Below are positions 2,741-49,402 of a DNA stretch of 64,000 nt, one piece after another. The translations under genes were made by a program, and so were the position numbers. Origin of the DNA: a virus (lineage: Duplodnaviria; Caudoviricetes); the IMG/VR virus record IMGVR_UViG_3300035208_008180. One strand, written 5' to 3'. Position 1 is the stretch's first letter. The number at the start of each line of letters is the position of its first letter. The notes under the pieces were generated by a model that was not told the DNA's origin, did not search any database, and saw nothing but the letters and a program-made list of their open reading frames with translations.

Positions 2741-3622
2741 TTATTCCTTCTTATTGTATTTTAAATAGTAATCTAATAGAAATTCGCCACAACTTGCTCC
2801 CACCCCTTTTCCAGGCGGTTCATAATATTCTACCCTTTGACCAAACCGCTCAATAATTTCCATAAATGCCTGCACATGGGGGCTGGCTTTATTATCAATA
2901 GTAGGACGCTCATTGTATTGCAACAACTTTATGGGAATATCTCGGCCAAACAACAACTCACATAATCTACGGGCATCTTGGGGCGAATCATTCACCCCTT
3001 CAATCAAAGTGTAATGAACCTCTACTTTGCTGCCCCTAGTCAATTTCGACATCATCTTCTGATAAAATTCCAAGGCGGCAATGGATGATTCTATTTCTAA
3101 TGCCGCTGGCATCCATTCTTTACGTAATTTATTGTCCGTAAAGTGCAAAGATAGATGGATTTTTACATCTAAATGATAAAGTATGATTCCTTCAACCAAA
3201 TTGAAAAACTTAAACCAATTACGTTTTGGAATAAGAGTGGCAACAGCAAATCGACAAGGGGCATACTTCTTTTTGGCAGAAAGCATCACACTCACAACAC
3301 TATCATTTTCTAATGGTTCGCCACAACCCATAAAAGAAATCAACAACATCCGTCCACCAAGTTTTAAGTCTTGGTGAATAAATTCTATTTGCTCATTCAT
3401 TTCACCCATATCCAAATAATTAACATGCACCTTGCCTTGACAATCCGTTGTATGACAGAATTTACATCCCAGATCACAAGACGTGTGCGTAGATACACAA
3501 ATGATATCTTTGCCAGTATTGTTATCAATATAAGCAACCTCACTTATCAAACCACTTTCCAATTGAAAAACATATTTAATTGTCTTGTCAATTTTGGAAT
3601 GTATTTTGTCAAGTAATTTCAT
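2741..3622 (-). CDS. RlmN/Cfr-family radical SAM RNA methyltransferase-like protein (short N-terminus)
   Basis: CVSTHTSCDLGCKFC (CxxxCxxC), FMGCGEPLEN, LSLH, YTLIEGVND, ASCGE; both RlmN catalytic Cys equivalents present. Confidence 0.8.
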   Translation of the reverse strand: MKLLDKIHSKIDKTIKYVFQLESGLISEVAYIDNNTGKDIICVSTHTSCDLGCKFCHTTDCQGKVHVNYLDMGEMNEQIEFIHQDLKLGGRMLLISFMGCGEPLENDSVVSVMLSAKKKYAPCRFAVATLIPKRNWFKFFNLVEGIILYHLDVKIHLSLHFTDNKLRKEWMPAALEIESSIAALEFYQKMMSKLTRGSKVEVHYTLIEGVNDSPQDARRLCELLFGRDIPIKLLQYNERPTIDNKASPHVQAFMEIIERFGQRVEYYEPPGKGVGASCGEFLLDYYLKYNKKE

Positions 3623-5199
3623 TCTATGGGTTCCCCAGGATCACTTTTGAATTTTTTTTCGGCTTTTAATCTTTTCTTTTCATCAGTAATTTGTTGGAGT
3701 TGACTTCTCTTGTCTGTTGCTTTCTTTTGCAATTCTTCCAAATGCCGAGCAGTCACTTCCTTATTAGCCGACACTTCATTAATTCTCTTATCAAATTCTG
3801 CCTTGCTGATCTCTTGCATTCCTAAAGTACGATCTCTATCCATTTCTATCCAAAACTCAAAACGACATTCTCCAAAACGAGTTTTTACAACTGATACTCT
3901 TGCGACCTTGGCCTCATATTCTACCTTTCGCTGATTCAAACTCCACAAAGCATCTAGGGGACGTGTCTGGCCTTTAGCATCAGCCAAATTATCATCATCG
4001 ATCAATTCTCCCATGTTTACCTTGCTGCGAGAATCTCCCGTAGCCTGCATGGCGGTTAACAAACATACTTTCTCTCGACTGGCAAACCCTTTTAATGCAC
4101 GAATAATTAAAAATCGACTTTCATAGGTTTTCATACCGGCAAAATCTTTCATTTCGCCAATATAATCCACTATCACTAAATCAGGCACAAAACCACGCAT
4201 TTGCAGTTGTTTGTAATAAGCCTGCATCGTGGCCACGTCCATCTCACCGCTGGGAAAGTGTTTGATAACCAGTCGGCGTGGGTCTTCATAATCCTTTGTA
4301 TAATTCTGTAAAGATTGGAATACGATATCCTTGTTGGGAATCAAATTCTTGATACCGATTCCGTATCGATTGCCAGGATCAGCTAATTGGGCGTCAAATC
4401 GTTCAGCAACACGACTTTCATCCAATTCGGTAGAAATATACAAAACCTTCTTGCCACGATGAATGTTGGCAACCGCCGCCTTGATTAAGCAAAGGGATTT
4501 GCCAGAACCAGAGAGCCCAATCCATGACGCTATTTCGCCTCTCTGCATTCCGCCGCCTTGCATGGCGTTATCAATGGACTCAAAGCCGGAAGTGAAAATA
4601 TCACCCTCGGCAATGCTTTTAATCATCTTGTCATAACGCTGTTCATATGTTTGAAAATATTCCTCTCCAATGTCAAAATCCCGATCTACCGACAAAGCAT
4701 CCTGTAGCTTGGTTTGAATGATGCTCCACTTATCCTGGTGATTGTATTTCAATTCATCCATACAACTAAAGAACGCCGCCTTGATTGCTTGTTCTTTAGC
4801 AAAGTCTAATATTCTATCCCTTAAATAATCTCTATCTTCTACACCTGGAACGTAGTGTTCGTAGACATTGTTAATTTCGGCTCGCCAATGCATTTTTACA
4901 TCGGCTGGCTTTTCCTTAATTCTGTCGGCTATGAATTGTTCTATAAACAATCGCTTGGGCAGAACTTTATATTGGTCAAAATACTTAAACAACCAATTGG
5001 CGACTTCTTTGTGAACTTCATTGGTAAAATAAAAAGGCTTTATTAAACCAAAGCTTTGGGTGAGAAACACCGCATCATTTAAAAGAAGAGAAAGAATTGT
5101 GCGTTGAAAATTCTCTTCCCACTGATATTGTACTTCAGCTTGAACATCGGGGTCATCAAACGCCCCCTCCTCATATTTGGAAACATCAATTTCAGGCAT
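3619..5199 (-). CDS. Replicative DNA helicase, DnaB/T4 gp41-like
   Basis: Walker A GLSGSGKS, YISTEL, IVDYIGEM, TAMQ, KTRFG arginine finger. Confidence 0.9.
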   Translation of the reverse strand: MPEIDVSKYEEGAFDDPDVQAEVQYQWEENFQRTILSLLLNDAVFLTQSFGLIKPFYFTNEVHKEVANWLFKYFDQYKVLPKRLFIEQFIADRIKEKPADVKMHWRAEINNVYEHYVPGVEDRDYLRDRILDFAKEQAIKAAFFSCMDELKYNHQDKWSIIQTKLQDALSVDRDFDIGEEYFQTYEQRYDKMIKSIAEGDIFTSGFESIDNAMQGGGMQRGEIASWIGLSGSGKSLCLIKAAVANIHRGKKVLYISTELDESRVAERFDAQLADPGNRYGIGIKNLIPNKDIVFQSLQNYTKDYEDPRRLVIKHFPSGEMDVATMQAYYKQLQMRGFVPDLVIVDYIGEMKDFAGMKTYESRFLIIRALKGFASREKVCLLTAMQATGDSRSKVNMGELIDDDNLADAKGQTRPLDALWSLNQRKVEYEAKVARVSVVKTRFGECRFEFWIEMDRDRTLGMQEISKAEFDKRINEVSANKEVTARHLEELQKKATDKRSQLQQITDEKKRLKAEKKFKSDPGEPIE

Positions 5200-6982: not shown

Positions 6983-7294
6983 TCATATCCCTGCTAGACC
7001 AACCTTGTGATCGAATCCAAGTATCACTTCAACCCTGGTTTGGATTTCTCGGATGGAATGGCCAAGTAAGTGATAACCCTTGTGTTCTAATTCGTCCTGA
7101 GTTTTCTCCCAATCCAACCTGCGTTTTTTCTCATGTGGCAGCGGCTCCACAGGAAGATCATTGTCAGCACAAATCTGTCGAACCATTTCTTCATGAAACC
7201 GTTCCCAAAAAAGATTATATTTTGCTCTCCAAACAGAATAACGCACCTTTTGGCCACGATAAGCACAACGCTCTTTGTTCTTGACTTTCCTCAT
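6983..7294 (-). CDS. Hypothetical protein
   Basis: 103-aa ORF coupled to the polymerase-like gene. Confidence 0.6.
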   Translation of the reverse strand: MRKVKNKERCAYRGQKVRYSVWRAKYNLFWERFHEEMVRQICADNDLPVEPLPHEKKRRLDWEKTQDELEHKGYHLLGHSIREIQTRVEVILGFDHKVGLAGI

Positions 7295-8589
7295 TTCACT
7301 ACTTTCAACTGATTGAGATTTCTACCTCTATAGGCTTTAACCCGCAATCTTAAACCAGGATACAACCCATCCTCTTCCTCTAAAATGTCTTTACACAAAT
7401 TTAAAACATTTATTTCTTGCCCCACATTTGGAATTATATAATATCCATCGTGAACATGAAAGCTAATTCTTGCAATTCCCTGAATAATTTTATGTAATTT
7501 CACCAATTTGTGTAAACAAATAACAGATGCTGGGGCCTGGATGTGGAAGTTTCTTAGTTGTGTGCGATAATATTCTTCTTCAAATAAACGATTTCGCCCA
7601 TAGTAATCAATTGCCCTATTATCTTTTACGTCCTTGTTGTTCAACCAGCCCATAGCTATGGGAAACTTTTTATAAATTCGACTAATAATGGTTTTTGCCG
7701 TTTCCTCAGCTACATCATTTTTCTTGGCTAAAGTAGCCGCACCCATGCCAAATGCCACAGGCAAAAAGAACCCTTTGCACACCTTTCGCCGTGATGGAGA
7801 ACATTCGAGCCCGGTTATGGTTTCCCAAATAGACTCATACACATCTCGACTACGATTTAAGATATTGCCTAACAAAGTGTCTTTGGATAGCCATTGCAAC
7901 ACGGAAACTTCCATATTTTTGAAGTCGAAATACAAAAAATCCTTGCTATCGAAATCAGGAGTGGTTAAAAATTGCTTCTCAGATTCTTCAAGGGTATGTG
8001 GATTGAAGGACTTATTAAAAGCATCCCTGCACTTCATTCGACCATTCTTCTGCCCCTCAATCTCATAATAGGGATGTAAAATAGCCTTTTGATCGGTATG
8101 TGCCAATCCCAAGGTTTCAATCCGAGGAAGAACCTCTCGAATCAATGGAGTATATATGGTTTTATATATGGTTTTTGTCTGCTCCCAACTAGAATTACCA
8201 ACAACCCTTGCCAATCGCCCTTTGGCTTGATTAAAACTACCAGGACAGGGCTCAGAATGCCCCAGGAATGCCTCAATTAGCTTTAAATCAACGATTGATG
8301 CCGATATGCTCAATTCCTTGCCCGTAATTGCTAAAATAAAACTAAACAAATTCTTGGCATTCCAGGCAATCAACACCTTGGACTGATCTAAATAATACTT
8401 TAGCTCGCCAATAATATTAATAAGTTCCGCTGGCTTATGGCTTAAAGGAATATCCATCCTTTTATTCGGAGCCATAATTACAAGGGTAGCGGGTGCCTTT
8501 GGATTGGTAAAATCCAATACTTCGGGAGAAGTGGCAACAAAAAGGGTTTGACCAACAAGAGACTCTAGAGTTTCTGCCAATTCCGACAT
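7291..8589 (-). CDS. Family A DNA polymerase-like protein (polymerase domain, compact and divergent)
   Basis: Motif A YFDFKNMEV, motif B RRKVCKGFFLPVAFGMG, NFHIQAPAS, motif C HVHDG. Confidence 0.8.
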   Translation of the reverse strand: MSELAETLESLVGQTLFVATSPEVLDFTNPKAPATLVIMAPNKRMDIPLSHKPAELINIIGELKYYLDQSKVLIAWNAKNLFSFILAITGKELSISASIVDLKLIEAFLGHSEPCPGSFNQAKGRLARVVGNSSWEQTKTIYKTIYTPLIREVLPRIETLGLAHTDQKAILHPYYEIEGQKNGRMKCRDAFNKSFNPHTLEESEKQFLTTPDFDSKDFLYFDFKNMEVSVLQWLSKDTLLGNILNRSRDVYESIWETITGLECSPSRRKVCKGFFLPVAFGMGAATLAKKNDVAEETAKTIISRIYKKFPIAMGWLNNKDVKDNRAIDYYGRNRLFEEEYYRTQLRNFHIQAPASVICLHKLVKLHKIIQGIARISFHVHDGYYIIPNVGQEINVLNLCKDILEEEDGLYPGLRLRVKAYRGRNLNQLKVVK

Positions 8590-8622: not shown

Positions 8623-10278
8623 CTAATCCTCAAAATCACCAAACTTTGTGCCAAACTTCTCGCCATGTTTTTTGAAAAACTCTTCCCTTTGTTTGATATT
8701 ATCGAGAACCCTCTTTAATTCTTCCCCATAATACTTTTGATTTAATAAATCCAACCAATCCTTTTCCTCTATGAATTTTAAGGTCTCTTGGGGTTTGGCC
8801 TTATAACATCTACTCAGAAAGTGATGTAAATTCTCGGCGGCGGGCTCTTTATACATCATTTCCAACATTTTTTCTGGCTGTTTTTCTGTTTTCCCGTAAT
8901 TACCATCATAACAATCAAAGACTTTGCGACGATTGTCGTTGTCGGGAGCATCCTCATATAATTTAAGTACGTCGTTCCAACCCTTCTGTCCAGCCAAATA
9001 AATAAATTTTTCTTTTACCAAGTAATAAGGATCAAAACTTCCTTTGGCTGTGGGGTGGAAAATTTTGGACAACTTCTCCGCAATCATTTTTACAGTTGGC
9101 TCTAATTCCTTATTGGTATAGCCACCTGCCTTCCATTTCGCTTCCGCTTCTTCATAACCTGGATCGTTGTATCTGGTTTTGCGAAATTCCCTATATCGAG
9201 TGTAGAATCTATCGAACAAAACTTCAGTATTGCGAAGTTTTAAAATAGGCTCCTTGGCGGTCAACACCATGTTGATTGTGGCATGTAAATCATTGAAATC
9301 CTCTCCCTCCACCTCAGTTCCATCTTTTTCCCAATCCTGTAGCCCACCATTCACAAATGAATTAAACAACTTTGGATCAAGTTCTCCTGTAAGTGCTTTT
9401 TTCGGAACCTTGAAATGAAAGGTGTTTTTTAGGGTGTTAGCGTCAGCCACCATCATTTCTTCTGGGGTCATGCTCTTATGCCCGCCACGGTTCGACATTG
9501 TATCAGAGATATTATACCAACCACCTTGTGGACCATTGGGACCAAAATTAGTGGGGACTGTTCCTAAAAGCAAATAAGCAACGTCAGAGGGATTGTAGAT
9601 ATGCCCCTTCTTCCAATTATCCATCACATAATCAACCCGCTCTTTTTCGTGCTCCCCAGTCAAAACTTTTAGATCACTTTGACGAATTGGGGCTCCTCCA
9701 GCACCGATACTAATAACAGGGTCTTCATCATCTTGACCTCCTTGCTGTGCCCCATAGGAAGAGAGAGGATTGGGTTTAATGGGGTCTACATAAATTCTGG
9801 ATTTATCGTGGTCAACGTAGGTAACTTTCCAATAGGGTGTCATATTTAAAGCATGATCGCCTACCTTGTCGCCTATTTGGACATCTTCTAAATTGTTGAT
9901 AGAACCAGGGTCATCTGCCCAATCATAATAATAACCCTCGATGTTGTCTTGCTTCACATTCCCAAACTTAAGTTGCCAAATACCATAGTGGGCTTTAATT
10001 TGTTGTCCTAATACCATTTTCCCAATATAAACCCGGCCTCTTTGTTGATCTATTCTTTCCACCTGAAATCGACCATCTGGACGTTCGATAGGGGTTTTTA
10101 TTTTAATTTTGGCCAGTTCATCAATCGCACCACCAGCTTGTTGAAAATCGATGTAGTAATCCCCATTCTCATCGTTTTGGATTTGTCCCCATTTCAACAA
10201 GAGGAAAGAAGGCCAAGGTCTTTTTCTTTGAGCCTCATTCAACAACAATAAATTAAAATCAAAAAAGTTCACAAACAT
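8623..10278 (-). CDS. Hypothetical 551-aa protein, possibly virion-associated
   Basis: Long ORF; N-terminus NFFDFNLLLLNE loosely resembles the head-targeting motif. Confidence 0.7.
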   Translation of the reverse strand: MFVNFFDFNLLLLNEAQRKRPWPSFLLLKWGQIQNDENGDYYIDFQQAGGAIDELAKIKIKTPIERPDGRFQVERIDQQRGRVYIGKMVLGQQIKAHYGIWQLKFGNVKQDNIEGYYYDWADDPGSINNLEDVQIGDKVGDHALNMTPYWKVTYVDHDKSRIYVDPIKPNPLSSYGAQQGGQDDEDPVISIGAGGAPIRQSDLKVLTGEHEKERVDYVMDNWKKGHIYNPSDVAYLLLGTVPTNFGPNGPQGGWYNISDTMSNRGGHKSMTPEEMMVADANTLKNTFHFKVPKKALTGELDPKLFNSFVNGGLQDWEKDGTEVEGEDFNDLHATINMVLTAKEPILKLRNTEVLFDRFYTRYREFRKTRYNDPGYEEAEAKWKAGGYTNKELEPTVKMIAEKLSKIFHPTAKGSFDPYYLVKEKFIYLAGQKGWNDVLKLYEDAPDNDNRRKVFDCYDGNYGKTEKQPEKMLEMMYKEPAAENLHHFLSRCYKAKPQETLKFIEEKDWLDLLNQKYYGEELKRVLDNIKQREEFFKKHGEKFGTKFGDFED

Positions 10279-10339
10279 ATGTAGCCAAAAAGCCTTTCAT
10301 TTTTATTGTTGTTTATTTGTTTTATTATATATTATGGCT

Positions 10340-10740
10340 TTCCCTTTAGGGGGAAATAAGTACTTAAGTAACTTACTAGACCCTAAAAGTTTTTATACTT
10401 GTGGCTAAACGTAACAGAGTCACCTTTGGCACCCCTTTTCAGGGGTAAAGCCTTATGGGTTCAGGCTGCCTTTAACGGTTCTCTCGCTTTTCACGTTTTC
10501 CCCGCCCCTATTCATAAGCTTAGGGGCAAGCGTGACCGGCAATAGGCAGACTTTTGACCTGCCTATCGTATACCACTTCTGGTATAGACGTAAATACCCA
10601 GCCATTTAACATGCATCCCAATTTCTGTAGGAATGCAAGGACGGATCAATACCGCCCCGTTGCCCGGTAGAGATTTACGTTTAGGTCCACAAATATTTTT
10701 CTGTTTAAATTGTAGTTCTTTCACGGGGTGACCGTGAATT
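10340..10740 (-). ncRNA. Candidate large structured non-coding RNA
   Basis: Within a 527-bp gap with no ORF-track gene; many hairpins, ACCCCT-GAAA-AGGGGT tetraloop on the minus strand, long-range stem 10401-10414/10675-10690, upstream promoter. Confidence 0.6.
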
Positions 10741-10746
10741 GGTTAT

Positions 10747-10775
10747 AATATAGTTTATCGCTTTTCAGGAGTCAA
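10747..10775 (-). promoter_or_regulatory. Sigma70-type promoter
   Basis: TTGACT-N17-TATATT pointing into the structured region. Confidence 0.6.
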
Positions 10776-10805
10776 CTAGATTTTTCTATTTCATGTTTTT
10801 TATGA

Positions 10806-11498
10806 ATGGTATATAATACTGCCATGAACAACTCCCGTCTAGAAGCTGTGTTAAAATACAAGATGACAAAACTCGAAGCATTGGCATTTCGGGTAGCATT
10901 GTTATGGGAGGAAGTTTCCCAAAAGGAATTTCCCAATGAACATTTTGTAAAATTGCGAATAAAAGGTGATCCTCGTAAGTCACTATTGTTTAAATATTGT
11001 TACACACTGGTCCGACAAACGCAAGGTCTTTTACAGCCCAAGGAGTATCGATTTTACATCCTGGCACAACTTCAATTAATGGCAAAAATGGGGAATGGCG
11101 AAGTTCACGCTCTGCTGGAGCCCTGTATTTTGGTTGGACCAAAAGCATGGATACGTTGGACTTGGTGGAAAAGTAAATATGAAAAAAATATGAGGCTATT
11201 AACCACCAATACAGAGGATTTGAAACTAACTCCGCAAATAGAAAATATTCAAAGGGATTTATTAAAAACCAAGAAATTTTTGGGCGATCCTTCAAAAGAG
11301 CAAGTACAACAATGGTTGGAAGAAAAAAAATTGCAAGAATGGATAACCACCAGTAAAATATCGCCTTATTACATATTGCTACACCCTTTGGTGATTGAGT
11401 GCTTATCTGGACAGTCGATCAATCAAGTGTTTGAAAGAGATTTGAGCATTTATAAAATTTCTGATGAAATAAAATCATTATTCTACACTATATTTTAG
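10806..11498 (+). CDS. Hypothetical protein
   Basis: 230-aa ORF. Confidence 0.7.
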   Translation: MVYNTAMNNSRLEAVLKYKMTKLEALAFRVALLWEEVSQKEFPNEHFVKLRIKGDPRKSLLFKYCYTLVRQTQGLLQPKEYRFYILAQLQLMAKMGNGEVHALLEPCILVGPKAWIRWTWWKSKYEKNMRLLTTNTEDLKLTPQIENIQRDLLKTKKFLGDPSKEQVQQWLEEKKLQEWITTSKISPYYILLHPLVIECLSGQSINQVFERDLSIYKISDEIKSLFYTIF

Positions 11499-14369: not shown

Positions 14370-15824
14370 TTGATGAATCAATTAGTTTTAGAAAATCATT
14401 ATTCCCGTTTAATAACACAAGACGACCACCTAAATCTACTTCTTTGGTCAAAACTAAGATTTAGGGATCGTGACTATTTTCATAGTCGTTTGTATAAACA
14501 AAAGAAGTGGGATGGTTTTCATAATTTTTATTCTAAAGAGACCGGCAAATTCCTGACAGGCATTCTGCCAGAGATACTGTTGGTTATGAATAAATTGAAA
14601 GTCAAATATGAAATCATTGATAATCGTAAGATGATTCAATGGCGAGTGCCCACAATCAATGACCAGTTTCTTAACTATTGGCTCACCGAATACAACGCCA
14701 GTGTCACCACAGAGGAACAACAAAAAGATTATACTTTGCGGGACTTTCAACCAGATGTAGTAAATGGAGTGTTGAAGCATTTTAGGGGATTAGTGGTTGC
14801 TCCTACTGGCACCGGCAAAACAGCCATCTTGATCTCATTAGTTAAATGTCTACCCAAACATTGTCCAACTTTAATTTTGTCAAATCGACGGGGCTTATCT
14901 GACCAACACTATTCGGACTTAAAGAACTGGGGTGTGCCTGATATTGGTAGACTATATGACAAATATAAAGACCCTAATTTTATTACCTGTGCTACTTGGC
15001 AATCAGCGGGCAAATTAGGCAAGTTGTTACCCCAAATTAAAGTTTTGCTTGTTGATGAAATTCACGAAATGATGACGGCAGGCACCCGTAAAATCTACAA
15101 TAAATTAACAGGATGTAGTGTCCGGGTTGGTATATCTGGAACGCCTTTTAAATACGATGGTAAAGACTCCAAACAGAAATGGCTTACCAAAGGATACTTT
15201 GGGCCTCCCATTCAAATAGCTTCTGCCAAAGACGGAAAACTTACGGTCAAAGAAGCTCAACAAAAGGGTATGCTTGTATCATGCAAAGCGGTTTTTTGGC
15301 CCATTCGAGAGCCGATGTTGCCTTATGATATTTACCTCGATGCCGTCACCAGAGGCATTGCTGAAAATTATGATTTTCATCATATTATTGAGAGATTGGT
15401 AAAAACTCTCAAAGGCAGGACGTTGATCCTGGTAGAAAGATTGGCTCATGGAGATATATTAAACAACATAATTCCAGGCTCTTTGTGGGTGCAAGGCAAA
15501 GACAATCTAGAAACTCGTAAACACGTAATTCGTGAATTGATGTTTGCAAAGGAATGTGTGGCGATTGCCACAAGTGGTATATTTTCAGCCGGTATCAATG
15601 TTTTTTGTCACAATTTTTTGAATGCCCAAGGAGGACAAGCAGATCATCAAATTATTCAGAGAATAGGAAGAGGATTGCGTCCTGCTGACGATAAGGATGT
15701 ATTATATTACCATGACTTCTATTTTCACATAAATGAATATCTTGAAGATCATTCTAAAAAAAGAATTAAAATTCTAAAAAAACAAGGGCACGAAGTAATT
15801 ATAAAAGATTCTATAGATTTTTGA
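14370..15824 (+). CDS. SF2 DNA helicase, UvsW-like
   Basis: LRDFQ Q-motif, APTGTGKT, DEIH, SGT, QRIGRGLR. Confidence 0.88.
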   Translation: MMNQLVLENHYSRLITQDDHLNLLLWSKLRFRDRDYFHSRLYKQKKWDGFHNFYSKETGKFLTGILPEILLVMNKLKVKYEIIDNRKMIQWRVPTINDQFLNYWLTEYNASVTTEEQQKDYTLRDFQPDVVNGVLKHFRGLVVAPTGTGKTAILISLVKCLPKHCPTLILSNRRGLSDQHYSDLKNWGVPDIGRLYDKYKDPNFITCATWQSAGKLGKLLPQIKVLLVDEIHEMMTAGTRKIYNKLTGCSVRVGISGTPFKYDGKDSKQKWLTKGYFGPPIQIASAKDGKLTVKEAQQKGMLVSCKAVFWPIREPMLPYDIYLDAVTRGIAENYDFHHIIERLVKTLKGRTLILVERLAHGDILNNIIPGSLWVQGKDNLETRKHVIRELMFAKECVAIATSGIFSAGINVFCHNFLNAQGGQADHQIIQRIGRGLRPADDKDVLYYHDFYFHINEYLEDHSKKRIKILKKQGHEVIIKDSIDF

Positions 15825-15846: not shown

Positions 15847-16545
15847 ATGAACTCAACAGAAATACATAATCAAAAAATTACAAAGATTTGTCCCCAGTGT
15901 GGAAAGACATACAAGGTCCGCAGACCAAGTGAAATGTCTATCCGAATTTTTTGCTCAAAGCAATGTGCCCATGATTCTACTAAAAAAGAAAAAACAATTG
16001 TTAGATGTGAAATTTGCGACAAAGAAATTGAGGTTTTGCCATGTTTGTTAGAACAAACAAAATATTGTTCAAAAAAATGTAAATGGATTGGAACCAGAAA
16101 AATAAGAGACGGTCTTAGTCGTCAATGCAATCAATGTAAAGAAACGAAACCTTTAGATTGTTTCGGCAGCACAGAATATAGCAGAAAGCATGAATATATT
16201 TGTAAAATTTGCAGAGCAAAATTGAGCCACGCCAGAATGCGAACAACAAAAGGACAATTTGCTGCCTGTAAACATATTGCTAAACGAAGAAAATTAGAAT
16301 GGAACATAAGCGAAGAAGAATACACAGAATTACGCAAGATGAAGTGCCACTATTGTTATGAGTCGTTAAATGAAACAGGAACTGGTCTCGACCGCAAGGA
16401 CAACAGCAAAGGCTATATATTAGACAATGTGGTGCCTTGCTGTTGTCATTGCAACAGAACCAGAAGCGACCATTTTACATATGAAGAAATGCTTCGATTA
16501 GCAGTGTTGATAAGAGAAATAAAAAGAGATAGGTTAAATGCGTAA
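15847..16545 (+). CDS. HNH-type endonuclease with Zn-binding repeats
   Basis: CxxC repeats; CHYC...GLDRKDNSKGY..DNVVPCC..CN. Confidence 0.75.
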   Translation: MNSTEIHNQKITKICPQCGKTYKVRRPSEMSIRIFCSKQCAHDSTKKEKTIVRCEICDKEIEVLPCLLEQTKYCSKKCKWIGTRKIRDGLSRQCNQCKETKPLDCFGSTEYSRKHEYICKICRAKLSHARMRTTKGQFAACKHIAKRRKLEWNISEEEYTELRKMKCHYCYESLNETGTGLDRKDNSKGYILDNVVPCCCHCNRTRSDHFTYEEMLRLAVLIREIKRDRLNA

Positions 16546-24249: not shown

Positions 24250-24277
24250 ATTATACTTCAGAAAACGGGGTTGTAAA
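24250..24277 (-). promoter_or_regulatory. Phage early-type sigma70 promoter
   Basis: TTTACA-N16-TATAAT with CTGAAG before the -10; motif recurs at 49311, 55045 and 57155. Confidence 0.65.
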
Positions 24278-49084: not shown

Positions 49085-49124
49085 ATTTCACCTCATGCAC
49101 ACATTATATCATATTTCAGGCAAT

Positions 49125-49160
49125 AAAAAAAGCCCGCTGACGGTTGACCGCCAGCGGGCT
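49125..49160 (-). terminator. Intrinsic terminator of the putative attenuator
   Basis: AGCCCGCTGGCGG-TCAA-CCGTCAGCGGGCT-TTTTTT. Confidence 0.9.
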
Positions 49161-49178
49161 TTTTGAAATGATCCTAGA

Positions 49179-49259
49179 TCAGCCCAGGGCGGTCCATACG
49201 CTCGTAAATAAATACGAGAGTGACAAGAGACTGCTCAGACTGGAATAGGACTTTTTCAT
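49179..49259 (-). CDS. Putative attenuator leader peptide MKKSYSSLSSLLSLSYLFTSVWTALG
   Basis: 26 codons; codons 4-20 are all Ser/Leu/Tyr/Phe/Thr; 3' end GACCGCCCTGGGCT is complementary to the terminator 5' arm. Confidence 0.85.
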   Translation of the reverse strand: MKKSYSSLSSLLSLSYLFTSVWTALG

Positions 49260-49310
49260 TTGTTCTCAACCTTATATACGCTTCTCGCAACAATTCTGTT
49301 CAACATCCCT

Positions 49311-49339
49311 ATTATACTTCAGTTTTTTTGAATTGTAAA
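49311..49339 (-). promoter_or_regulatory. Sigma70-type promoter of the leader/tRNA locus
   Basis: TTTACA-N17-TATAAT. Confidence 0.75.
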
Positions 49340-49351
49340 GAGGGAAAACAG

Positions 49352-49391
49352 AAAAATTTCACCCGCCCCCATTTATAGGGGGCAGATGAAA
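49352..49391 (-). terminator. Terminator-like hairpin insulating the tRNA-locus promoter
   Basis: TTTCATCTGCCCCC...GGGGGCGGGTGAAA followed by a T-run on the minus strand. Confidence 0.55.
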
Positions 49392-49402
49392 TCAGATCGG
49401 TA

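Follow-up and report, generated by a model that had tools for sequence, protein, structure and literature searches.

The divergent 527-bp gap (positions 10279-10805) that separates the genes p551 and p230 probably encodes a minus-sense, highly structured, non-coding RNA of about 400 nt, extending from approximately 10740 to approximately 10340 of the window, i.e. of the whole 64-kb stretch of DNA analyzed here (G000:C200:192001-256000). The slot that this RNA occupies, between a p230-family gene and the gene of a minimal family-A DNA polymerase (PolA), is a position-conserved home of long, fast-diverging non-coding sequence. The RNA is best explained, albeit tentatively and with a confidence somewhat short of even, as a lineage-specific structured leader of the p551-PolA message, acting in cis and belonging to a position-conserved but fast-evolving class.

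Genomic setting and predicted fold of the RNA

The window is a part of contig C200 (340,072 bp), whose GC content (40%) differs markedly from that of the rest of assembly G000 (approximately 70%). Given the 14 tRNA genes found inside the 64-kb window alone and the presence of a replication module, C200 represents all or much of the genome of a jumbo phage and has ended up in the bin of a bacterium to which it is unrelated. This module comprises a DnaB-like helicase (3619-5199), the family-A polymerase (432 aa; 7291-8589, minus strand), a second helicase (14370-15824) and endonuclease VII (15847-16545). The first two of these lie downstream of the RNA region, as the preliminary description had it when it spoke of downstream replication genes. 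Since C200 also encodes a split DnaE-type polymerase, the minimal PolA is an accessory enzyme. The DnaE-type (family C) alpha subunit is divided into two genes located approximately 21 kb apart (frames of 878 and 451 aa; gene pieces at C200:118365-118859 and C200:139797-140111), and neither a family-B polymerase nor a reverse transcriptase (RVT_1) was found on the contig. Four further contigs with 38-42% GC (C137, C226, C242 and C44, the last of which carries a family-B polymerase) are present in the same bin of approximately 70% GC, which suggests misbinning or a mixture of organisms. The assembly of C200 is probably broken at repeats on both ends, as its first 240 positions consist of AGTTCA/AGCTCA hexamer tandem repeats and its last 300 bases hold a repeat coding for collagen-like GYSG units.

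The gap is flanked by p551 (8623-10278, minus strand), the first gene downstream of the RNA, and by its divergent neighbour p230 (10806-11498, plus strand), a conserved locus marker in many jumbo phages. The p551 protein gave no Pfam or PHROG hit and its AlphaFold model (pLDDT 80, with 85 disordered N-terminal amino acids) matched no PDB fold. The p551 family is widespread in phages (66 hits) and is not tied to the RNA elsewhere: homologs of approximately 43% identity are located in other gene contexts, without a large gap, and N-terminal fragments of p551 were not found. Invariant motifs of this family include GPNGxQGGWY and NMTPYW. For p551 itself neither a promoter nor a Shine-Dalgarno sequence could be recognised, and the two arms of an A/U-rich inverted repeat, 12 bp long and perfect (10302-10313 with 10241-10252), flank its AUG. 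The AlphaFold model of p230 (pLDDT 86) also matched no PDB fold, and since this is the case for both models, neither protein hints at RNA binding. The true start of p230 is probably the ATG at 10824, which would result in a leaderless mRNA (TATAAT-N6-ATG). Translation from this codon gives a protein of 224 aa, matching one public annotation; the N-termini of the family seem to align with Met7 (consensus), and the arrangement of the -10 element and ATG is conserved in a related Logan contig (L022, described below).

The large intergenic gap reported in the preliminary description was borne out, as no ORF of at least 60 aa exists between p551 and p230; the only three ORFs, of 48-53 aa, have no Pfam hits. 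Folding of the minus-strand RNA 10279-10740 gave a minimum free energy (MFE) of -156 kcal/mol (z -6.46), which none of 100 dinucleotide shuffles equalled, compared with a z-score of -2.87 for the plus strand. In the core region (10395-10696) the minus strand reached -123.1 kcal/mol, vs -100.7 kcal/mol for the plus strand, and the 302-nt minus-strand core contains 99 pairs, of which 9 are G-U. With DNA folding parameters both strands are about equally structured, so the strand asymmetry is a feature of RNA-type pairing only. When set against all 47 gaps of at least 200 nt in C200, the p551/p230 gap is among the most structured and, within the strongly structured ones, the most strand-asymmetric. 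The core is also enriched in GC (0.49) relative to its flanks (0.29-0.40).

Other strongly structured gaps were noticed in the window (49085-49402) and elsewhere on the contig (C200:38492-38756, C200:334340-334950 and C200:37710-38059). Among their contents are bidirectional terminator hairpins in pairs, one long inverted repeat and, outside the annotated tRNA cluster, tRNA-like GGTTCGAATCC arms.

In the predicted minus-strand structure, the inferred transcript start is followed immediately by a 5' hairpin (UUCACGG-loop-CCGUGAA; 10720-10738; pair probability 0.96) and then by the multi-branch core of approximately 300 nt and 99 pairs (10395-10696). The core is closed by a helix of 10+10 bp with a 2-nt bulge, which joins 10675-10696 to 10395-10414, and contains the stems GGGGCGG/CCGUCCU, UGCAUUCC/GGGAUGCA, UAUACCA/UGGUAUA (with a GAAG loop), AUAGGCAG/CUGCCUAU, UCACG/CGUGA (around the inner stem GCCCCUA/UAGGGGC), AGCCU/AGGCU and ACCCCU/AGGGGU (with a GAAA loop). 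All stems listed in the preliminary description recur in this MFE structure, each with a pair probability of 0.93-0.99, and the long-range closing stem proposed there corresponds to the 10+10-bp helix. The core is followed by a 3' hairpin of 9+7+2 bp (10343-10389) containing CCCUAAAGGGAAAGCC, with no U-tract after it, and by an AT-rich spacer (10279-10342) that leads up to the p551 start; the 200-nt interval that includes this spacer (10200-10399) has a GC content of 0.29.

An alternative closing pairing, also proposed earlier, proved real in the folding analysis. Strand A (ACGUAAAU, 10673-10680), the 5' strand of the closing helix on the minus strand, can pair with segment B (AUUUACGU, 10588-10595, minus strand) within a helix joining 10673-10683 to 10585-10595. 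In every transcript prefix from 160 to 320 nt long, the MFE structure is closed by this A:B helix; once segment C (10405-10414) has been transcribed, the MFE solution changes to the closing helix A:C. Forcing A:B in the full RNA gives -147.2 instead of -150.6 kcal/mol, i.e. a penalty of 3.4 kcal/mol. These two near-isoenergetic helices are the one basis for the earlier idea of a switch, for which no expression platform (a terminator or a sequestered Shine-Dalgarno sequence) is evident. Of the wider proposal of a novel non-coding RNA, ribozyme or switch, the structured and non-coding character and the lack of an Rfam family stood, while nothing specific to a ribozyme was seen.

Promoter and relatives of the locus

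A sigma-70-like promoter, TTGACT-N17-TATATT, is located on the minus strand at 10775-10747, where the preliminary description had placed it, and the transcript would begin near 10740. The promoter scores 10/12, and approximately 143 matches of this score occur in the contig, 22% of which fall in the 9.6% of the sequence that is non-coding. Taken alone, the match is no more than suggestive. The Logan contig L022, which has a p230 of 59% identity, carries an identical promoter (both hexamers and the spacing) at the corresponding site. The distance from the promoter to the p230 start is equal in both phages, and the conserved block reads ATATAGTT..TTTTCA(A)GGAGTCAA. The gap of L022 is only 123 nt long and has no RNA insert; the promoter there directly precedes a leftward operon composed of a 399-aa gene, a GIY-YIG endonuclease gene and then PolA. 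As the hexamers and spacing are conserved in a phage devoid of the RNA insert, the promoter is, judging from this sequence comparison, probably real and would drive transcription of the leftward genes. In the stretch leading from the RNA to p551 no terminator was called, and no promoter for an antisense RNA was seen within the RNA.

Another promoter-like motif, TTTACA-N9-(T)TCTG(A/G)AG-TATAAT, recurs at 19 sites of C200, all on the minus strand (e.g. window positions 24277 and 55072). In several copies an ATG follows 6-7 nt past the -10 element, which would give leaderless mRNAs. The promoter of the RNA itself does not belong to this class.

Searches for relatives of the RNA gave no family assignment. 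At gathering thresholds, Rfam 15 found only tRNAs in the 64-kb window, and at E<=10 the best match in 10200-10900 had an E-value of 0.35, with unrelated families scoring far below gathering. ARAGORN detected no tmRNA or tRNA in the RNA region; together, the Rfam and ARAGORN results agree with the preliminary description, in which no tmRNA, RNase P or SRP signatures had been recognised. No second copy was present in the 6.2-Mb assembly according to BLAST, nhmmer and a single-sequence covariance model of the RNA (R1, 259 positions), and R1 had no hit in five related virus records and approximately 86 related loci. Searches of INPHARED phages with blastn (distant mode) and tblastn gave no match, an exact scan of IMG/VR with two 18-mers gave 0 hits, and a 20-mer search of JGI metagenomes gave three hits, all by chance and located in unrelated coding DNA.

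The nearest relative of the locus is ENA ERZ1426851, in which p551 and p230 are 93% and 89% identical, respectively, the gene order is the same and the gap without called genes measures 525 nt, vs 527 nt here. The next relative, Logan SRR22315509 (p230 79% identical), is a contig that stops 185 nt upstream of p230. In L022 and in another contig, L023 (p230 59-60% identical), both PolA and p230 are present and the slot contains no RNA, which means that the RNA is either dispensable or recently gained.

Several candidate identities were tried and rejected. An intron was ruled out, as the genes on either side point away from each other and p230, which lies on the opposite strand, is conserved. 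A retron or DRT non-coding RNA was ruled out too: there is no reverse transcriptase on C200 and p551 has no Pfam hit. For a Ro/Y-RNA, no TROVE protein is encoded on the contig. Finally, a pseudogene remnant was rejected, since tblastn detected no similarity to the genes occupying the slot in relatives and the small ORFs lack Pfam hits.

The same slot in other jumbo phages

With the p230 family (graded) as an anchor, 80 IMG/VR loci were retrieved. In approximately 30 of them a divergent gap of 430-870 nt precedes the p230 gene; most such gaps adjoin a minimal PolA of approximately 430 aa, and several have no ORF of at least 45 aa. The gaps of one group, cluster A (11-12 contigs: L038, L039, L044, L046, L047/48, L051, L057, L063, L067, L070 and L089), can be aligned despite a locus GC content ranging from 27 to 60%. 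They contain an RNA of approximately 430 nt in the PolA sense, located upstream of a small basic ORF that is followed by the minimal PolA (minus strand; L038:1973-2396, L044:1995-2425, L051:687-1095, L057:1957-2455, L070:2019-2435 and six more).

Within a 160-nt core of the cluster A RNA, 93.8% of the paired positions form standard pairs and 15 of the 28 pairs show compensatory changes. The observed pairing was reached by 0 of 500 shuffles, and controls with slid partners gave 33-52%. The core includes the invariant sequence CCRUGUAACC...GGGUCAYGGUC as well as invariant unpaired nucleotides, as is typical where an RNA makes tertiary contacts or binds protein. Rfam had no match in these loci. 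The cluster A element is thus certainly a structured, covarying RNA that is absent from Rfam. A family model of the covarying core (R2) recovered 12 of 12 members at E<=2e-16, and a scan of IMG/VR with the core pattern returned the same 11 cluster A contigs.

The RNA of the window is not a recognisable member of this family. R2 had no hit in the window at E<=10, the CCRUGUAACC...GGGUCAYGGUC motifs are absent from the window RNA, and R1 had no hit in the cluster A loci. What the two RNAs have in common is the slot, the sense, a similar length (approximately 430 nt for cluster A), hairpins with GNRA-type loops, long-range helices and a weak shared 3' motif, CCCUAAGGGA(U/A)GGCC. They differ in the gene that follows (a small basic ORF in cluster A, p551 here) and in stability, the window RNA being far more stable (z -6.5 vs -1.7 to -3.1 for cluster A).

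Further sequence clusters distinct from both cluster A and the window RNA are cluster D (L024 and L117), L087/88/90 and L049/96/98; the 686-nt gap of L117 is significantly structured (z -4.4). In clusters A and D the RNA ends with a hairpin, after which comes a U-rich tract ahead of the next ORF; a simple terminator scan did not call these 3' hairpins. The segment CCCUAAAGGGAAAGCC of the window RNA weakly resembles CCCUAAGGGAUGGCC of clusters A and D, but RNAalifold found no common fold for this 3' hairpin between the window RNA and the two clusters, and the recurrence of the motif is only a hint. Like the cluster A RNAs, the window RNA has a p230-family gene on one side and the PolA operon on the other, and it runs in the PolA sense. 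Its placement in the same class as the other slot RNAs would be by position alone, with no detectable sequence similarity.

The slot also receives other DNA. In L022 a GIY-YIG homing-endonuclease gene (L022:2077-2685) is located between the promoter-proximal gene and PolA, which marks the slot as an insertion hot spot.

Possible roles of the RNA

According to the preferred leader reading, the conserved sigma-70-type promoter would drive a leftward transcript starting near 10740, and the RNA would constitute the 5' part of a message covering p551, the accessory PolA and further leftward genes, with transcription and read-through presumed from the layout of the locus. The A:B helix would close the 5' domain early in transcription and A:C would take over in the complete RNA, and the adopted fold, or a protein bound to it, may set the stability or the translation of the downstream message. 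The start of p551 lacks a Shine-Dalgarno sequence and lies inside the 12-bp inverted repeat. Favouring a leader, besides the structure signal, the promoter shared with L022, the missing terminator and the covarying RNA of cluster A, is that the gap stays non-coding and length-matched (differing by 2 nt) in the relative with a 93% identical p551. There are precedents in T4, whose replication proteins (gp43, gp32 and the RegA targets) are controlled by autogenous translational operators in structured 5' leaders; here, too, a structured leader would stand directly upstream of a phage replication gene, and cis control is plausible. The T4 operators, however, are short (hairpins of 20-40 nt or a pseudoknot), whereas the element described here is a 300-nt multi-branch structure approximately 60 nt away from the start codon. 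Other points against a leader are that the window RNA is missing from L022 and L023 and does not match R2, that the promoter score is a common one in the contig, and that the 20-bp closing helix fits a processed stable RNA equally well.

That helix is central to a somewhat unlikely alternative, in which the RNA would be a discrete, stable, trans-acting or RNP-forming molecule, independent of p551 and PolA expression, whose core is excised, e.g. by RNase III cutting the 20-bp duplex, as is known for rRNA precursors. The ornate, closed multi-branch fold with its GNRA-type loops (GAAA and GAAG) and two-turn terminal duplex would suit such an RNA, as would the GC enrichment, which is seen in stable RNAs of AT-rich genomes. 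The hairpins and U-rich tracts ending the RNAs of clusters A and D suggest separate RNA units there, and the invariant unpaired nucleotides of cluster A point in the same direction. Yet the window RNA has no terminator or U-tract behind it, the terminal hairpins of both clusters escaped the terminator scan, no partner protein was found (the folds of p551 and p230 match nothing) and no Rfam family matched. GOLLD, ROOL, HEARO and OLE are similarly long, GC-enriched, multi-helix RNAs located on mobile or viral DNA, but none of them matches the window RNA even at E<=10. These RNAs are typically 300-800 nt long and often neighbour tRNAs or specific genes, while the window RNA lies in the promoter region of replication genes. 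An RNA-primed replication origin of the ColE1 RNA II, T4 oriF/oriG or T7 type is a live but still less likely rival. In this scenario a pre-primer RNA would hybridise with the AT-rich DNA at 10280-10340, the accessory family-A polymerase would extend it and the DnaE-type replicase would succeed it. The order of a sigma-70 promoter, a structured RNA of several hundred nucleotides and then AT-rich DNA (GC 0.29 in 10200-10399) is shared with the ColE1 and T4 origins, as an architectural match only. The replication module extends on both sides of the element, large non-coding gaps beside PolA are conserved across the clade, and a family-A polymerase accompanies a family-C replicase, the split DnaE and minimal PolA mirroring the hand-over from Pol I to Pol III that takes place at ColE1 origins. 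Against this, there is no GC-skew inflection (the local sign change tracks gene strand) and no iterons or DnaA-box-like repeats were found, and neither skew nor repeats lend support to the origin offered as an alternative in the preliminary description. Moreover, nothing resembling the antisense RNA I unit of ColE1, or a promoter for it, was seen, Rfam RNAI and plasmid-RNA homology are lacking, and the element, unlike the ColE1 and T4 origins, is dispensable in close relatives, since L022 and L023 keep PolA and p230 without it. That the fold is strand-asymmetric and contains G-U pairs indicates a function at the RNA level, which fits a primer but is not diagnostic of one.

Least probable of all is that the element has no function and represents a selfish or decaying insertion, either MITE-like with terminal inverted repeats (TIRs) of 20-22 bp or a gene remnant at a hot spot. 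The 302-nt core is indeed bounded by imperfect inverted repeats (20/22), it is missing from L022 and L023, and the slot accepts other inserts (the GIY-YIG endonuclease and 399-aa genes in L022, p551 here). Nevertheless, the element is single-copy in the 6.2-Mb assembly, and the TIR pattern produced one chance hit in 185,579 GTDB species genomes and none in IMG/VR. The flanks are T-rich on both sides, and neither a clear direct repeat nor a convincing target-site duplication was seen; a protein remnant was not detected either. A decaying gene would not be expected to contain so many perfect hairpins, nor to show the strand asymmetry and the elevated GC, and the length of the gap is maintained in the 93% relative. 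We give very little credence to one wider idea, namely that throughout the jumbo-phage clade the slot RNAs, the window RNA among them, work together with the minimal family-A polymerase, either as a ColE1-like pre-primer that defines an RNA-primed origin or as a primer or template RNA in specialised DNA synthesis. If true, it would describe a fast-evolving RNA-polymerase module with a telomerase-RNA-like logic, in which position and role are conserved and sequence is not.

To our knowledge, jumbo phages have so far yielded very few structured non-coding RNAs. What is new here is a strongly structured orphan RNA downstream of a promoter shared with a relative and, beyond this single locus, a p230/PolA slot that is repeatedly non-coding across many uncultivated giant phages, with one subgroup that covaries and is not represented in Rfam. 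This wider slot pattern constitutes the main new value of the finding. It offers an entry point into how giant phages control or prime the replication of their DNA, and another into how large RNAs diverge beyond sequence recognition while their genomic position stays the same.
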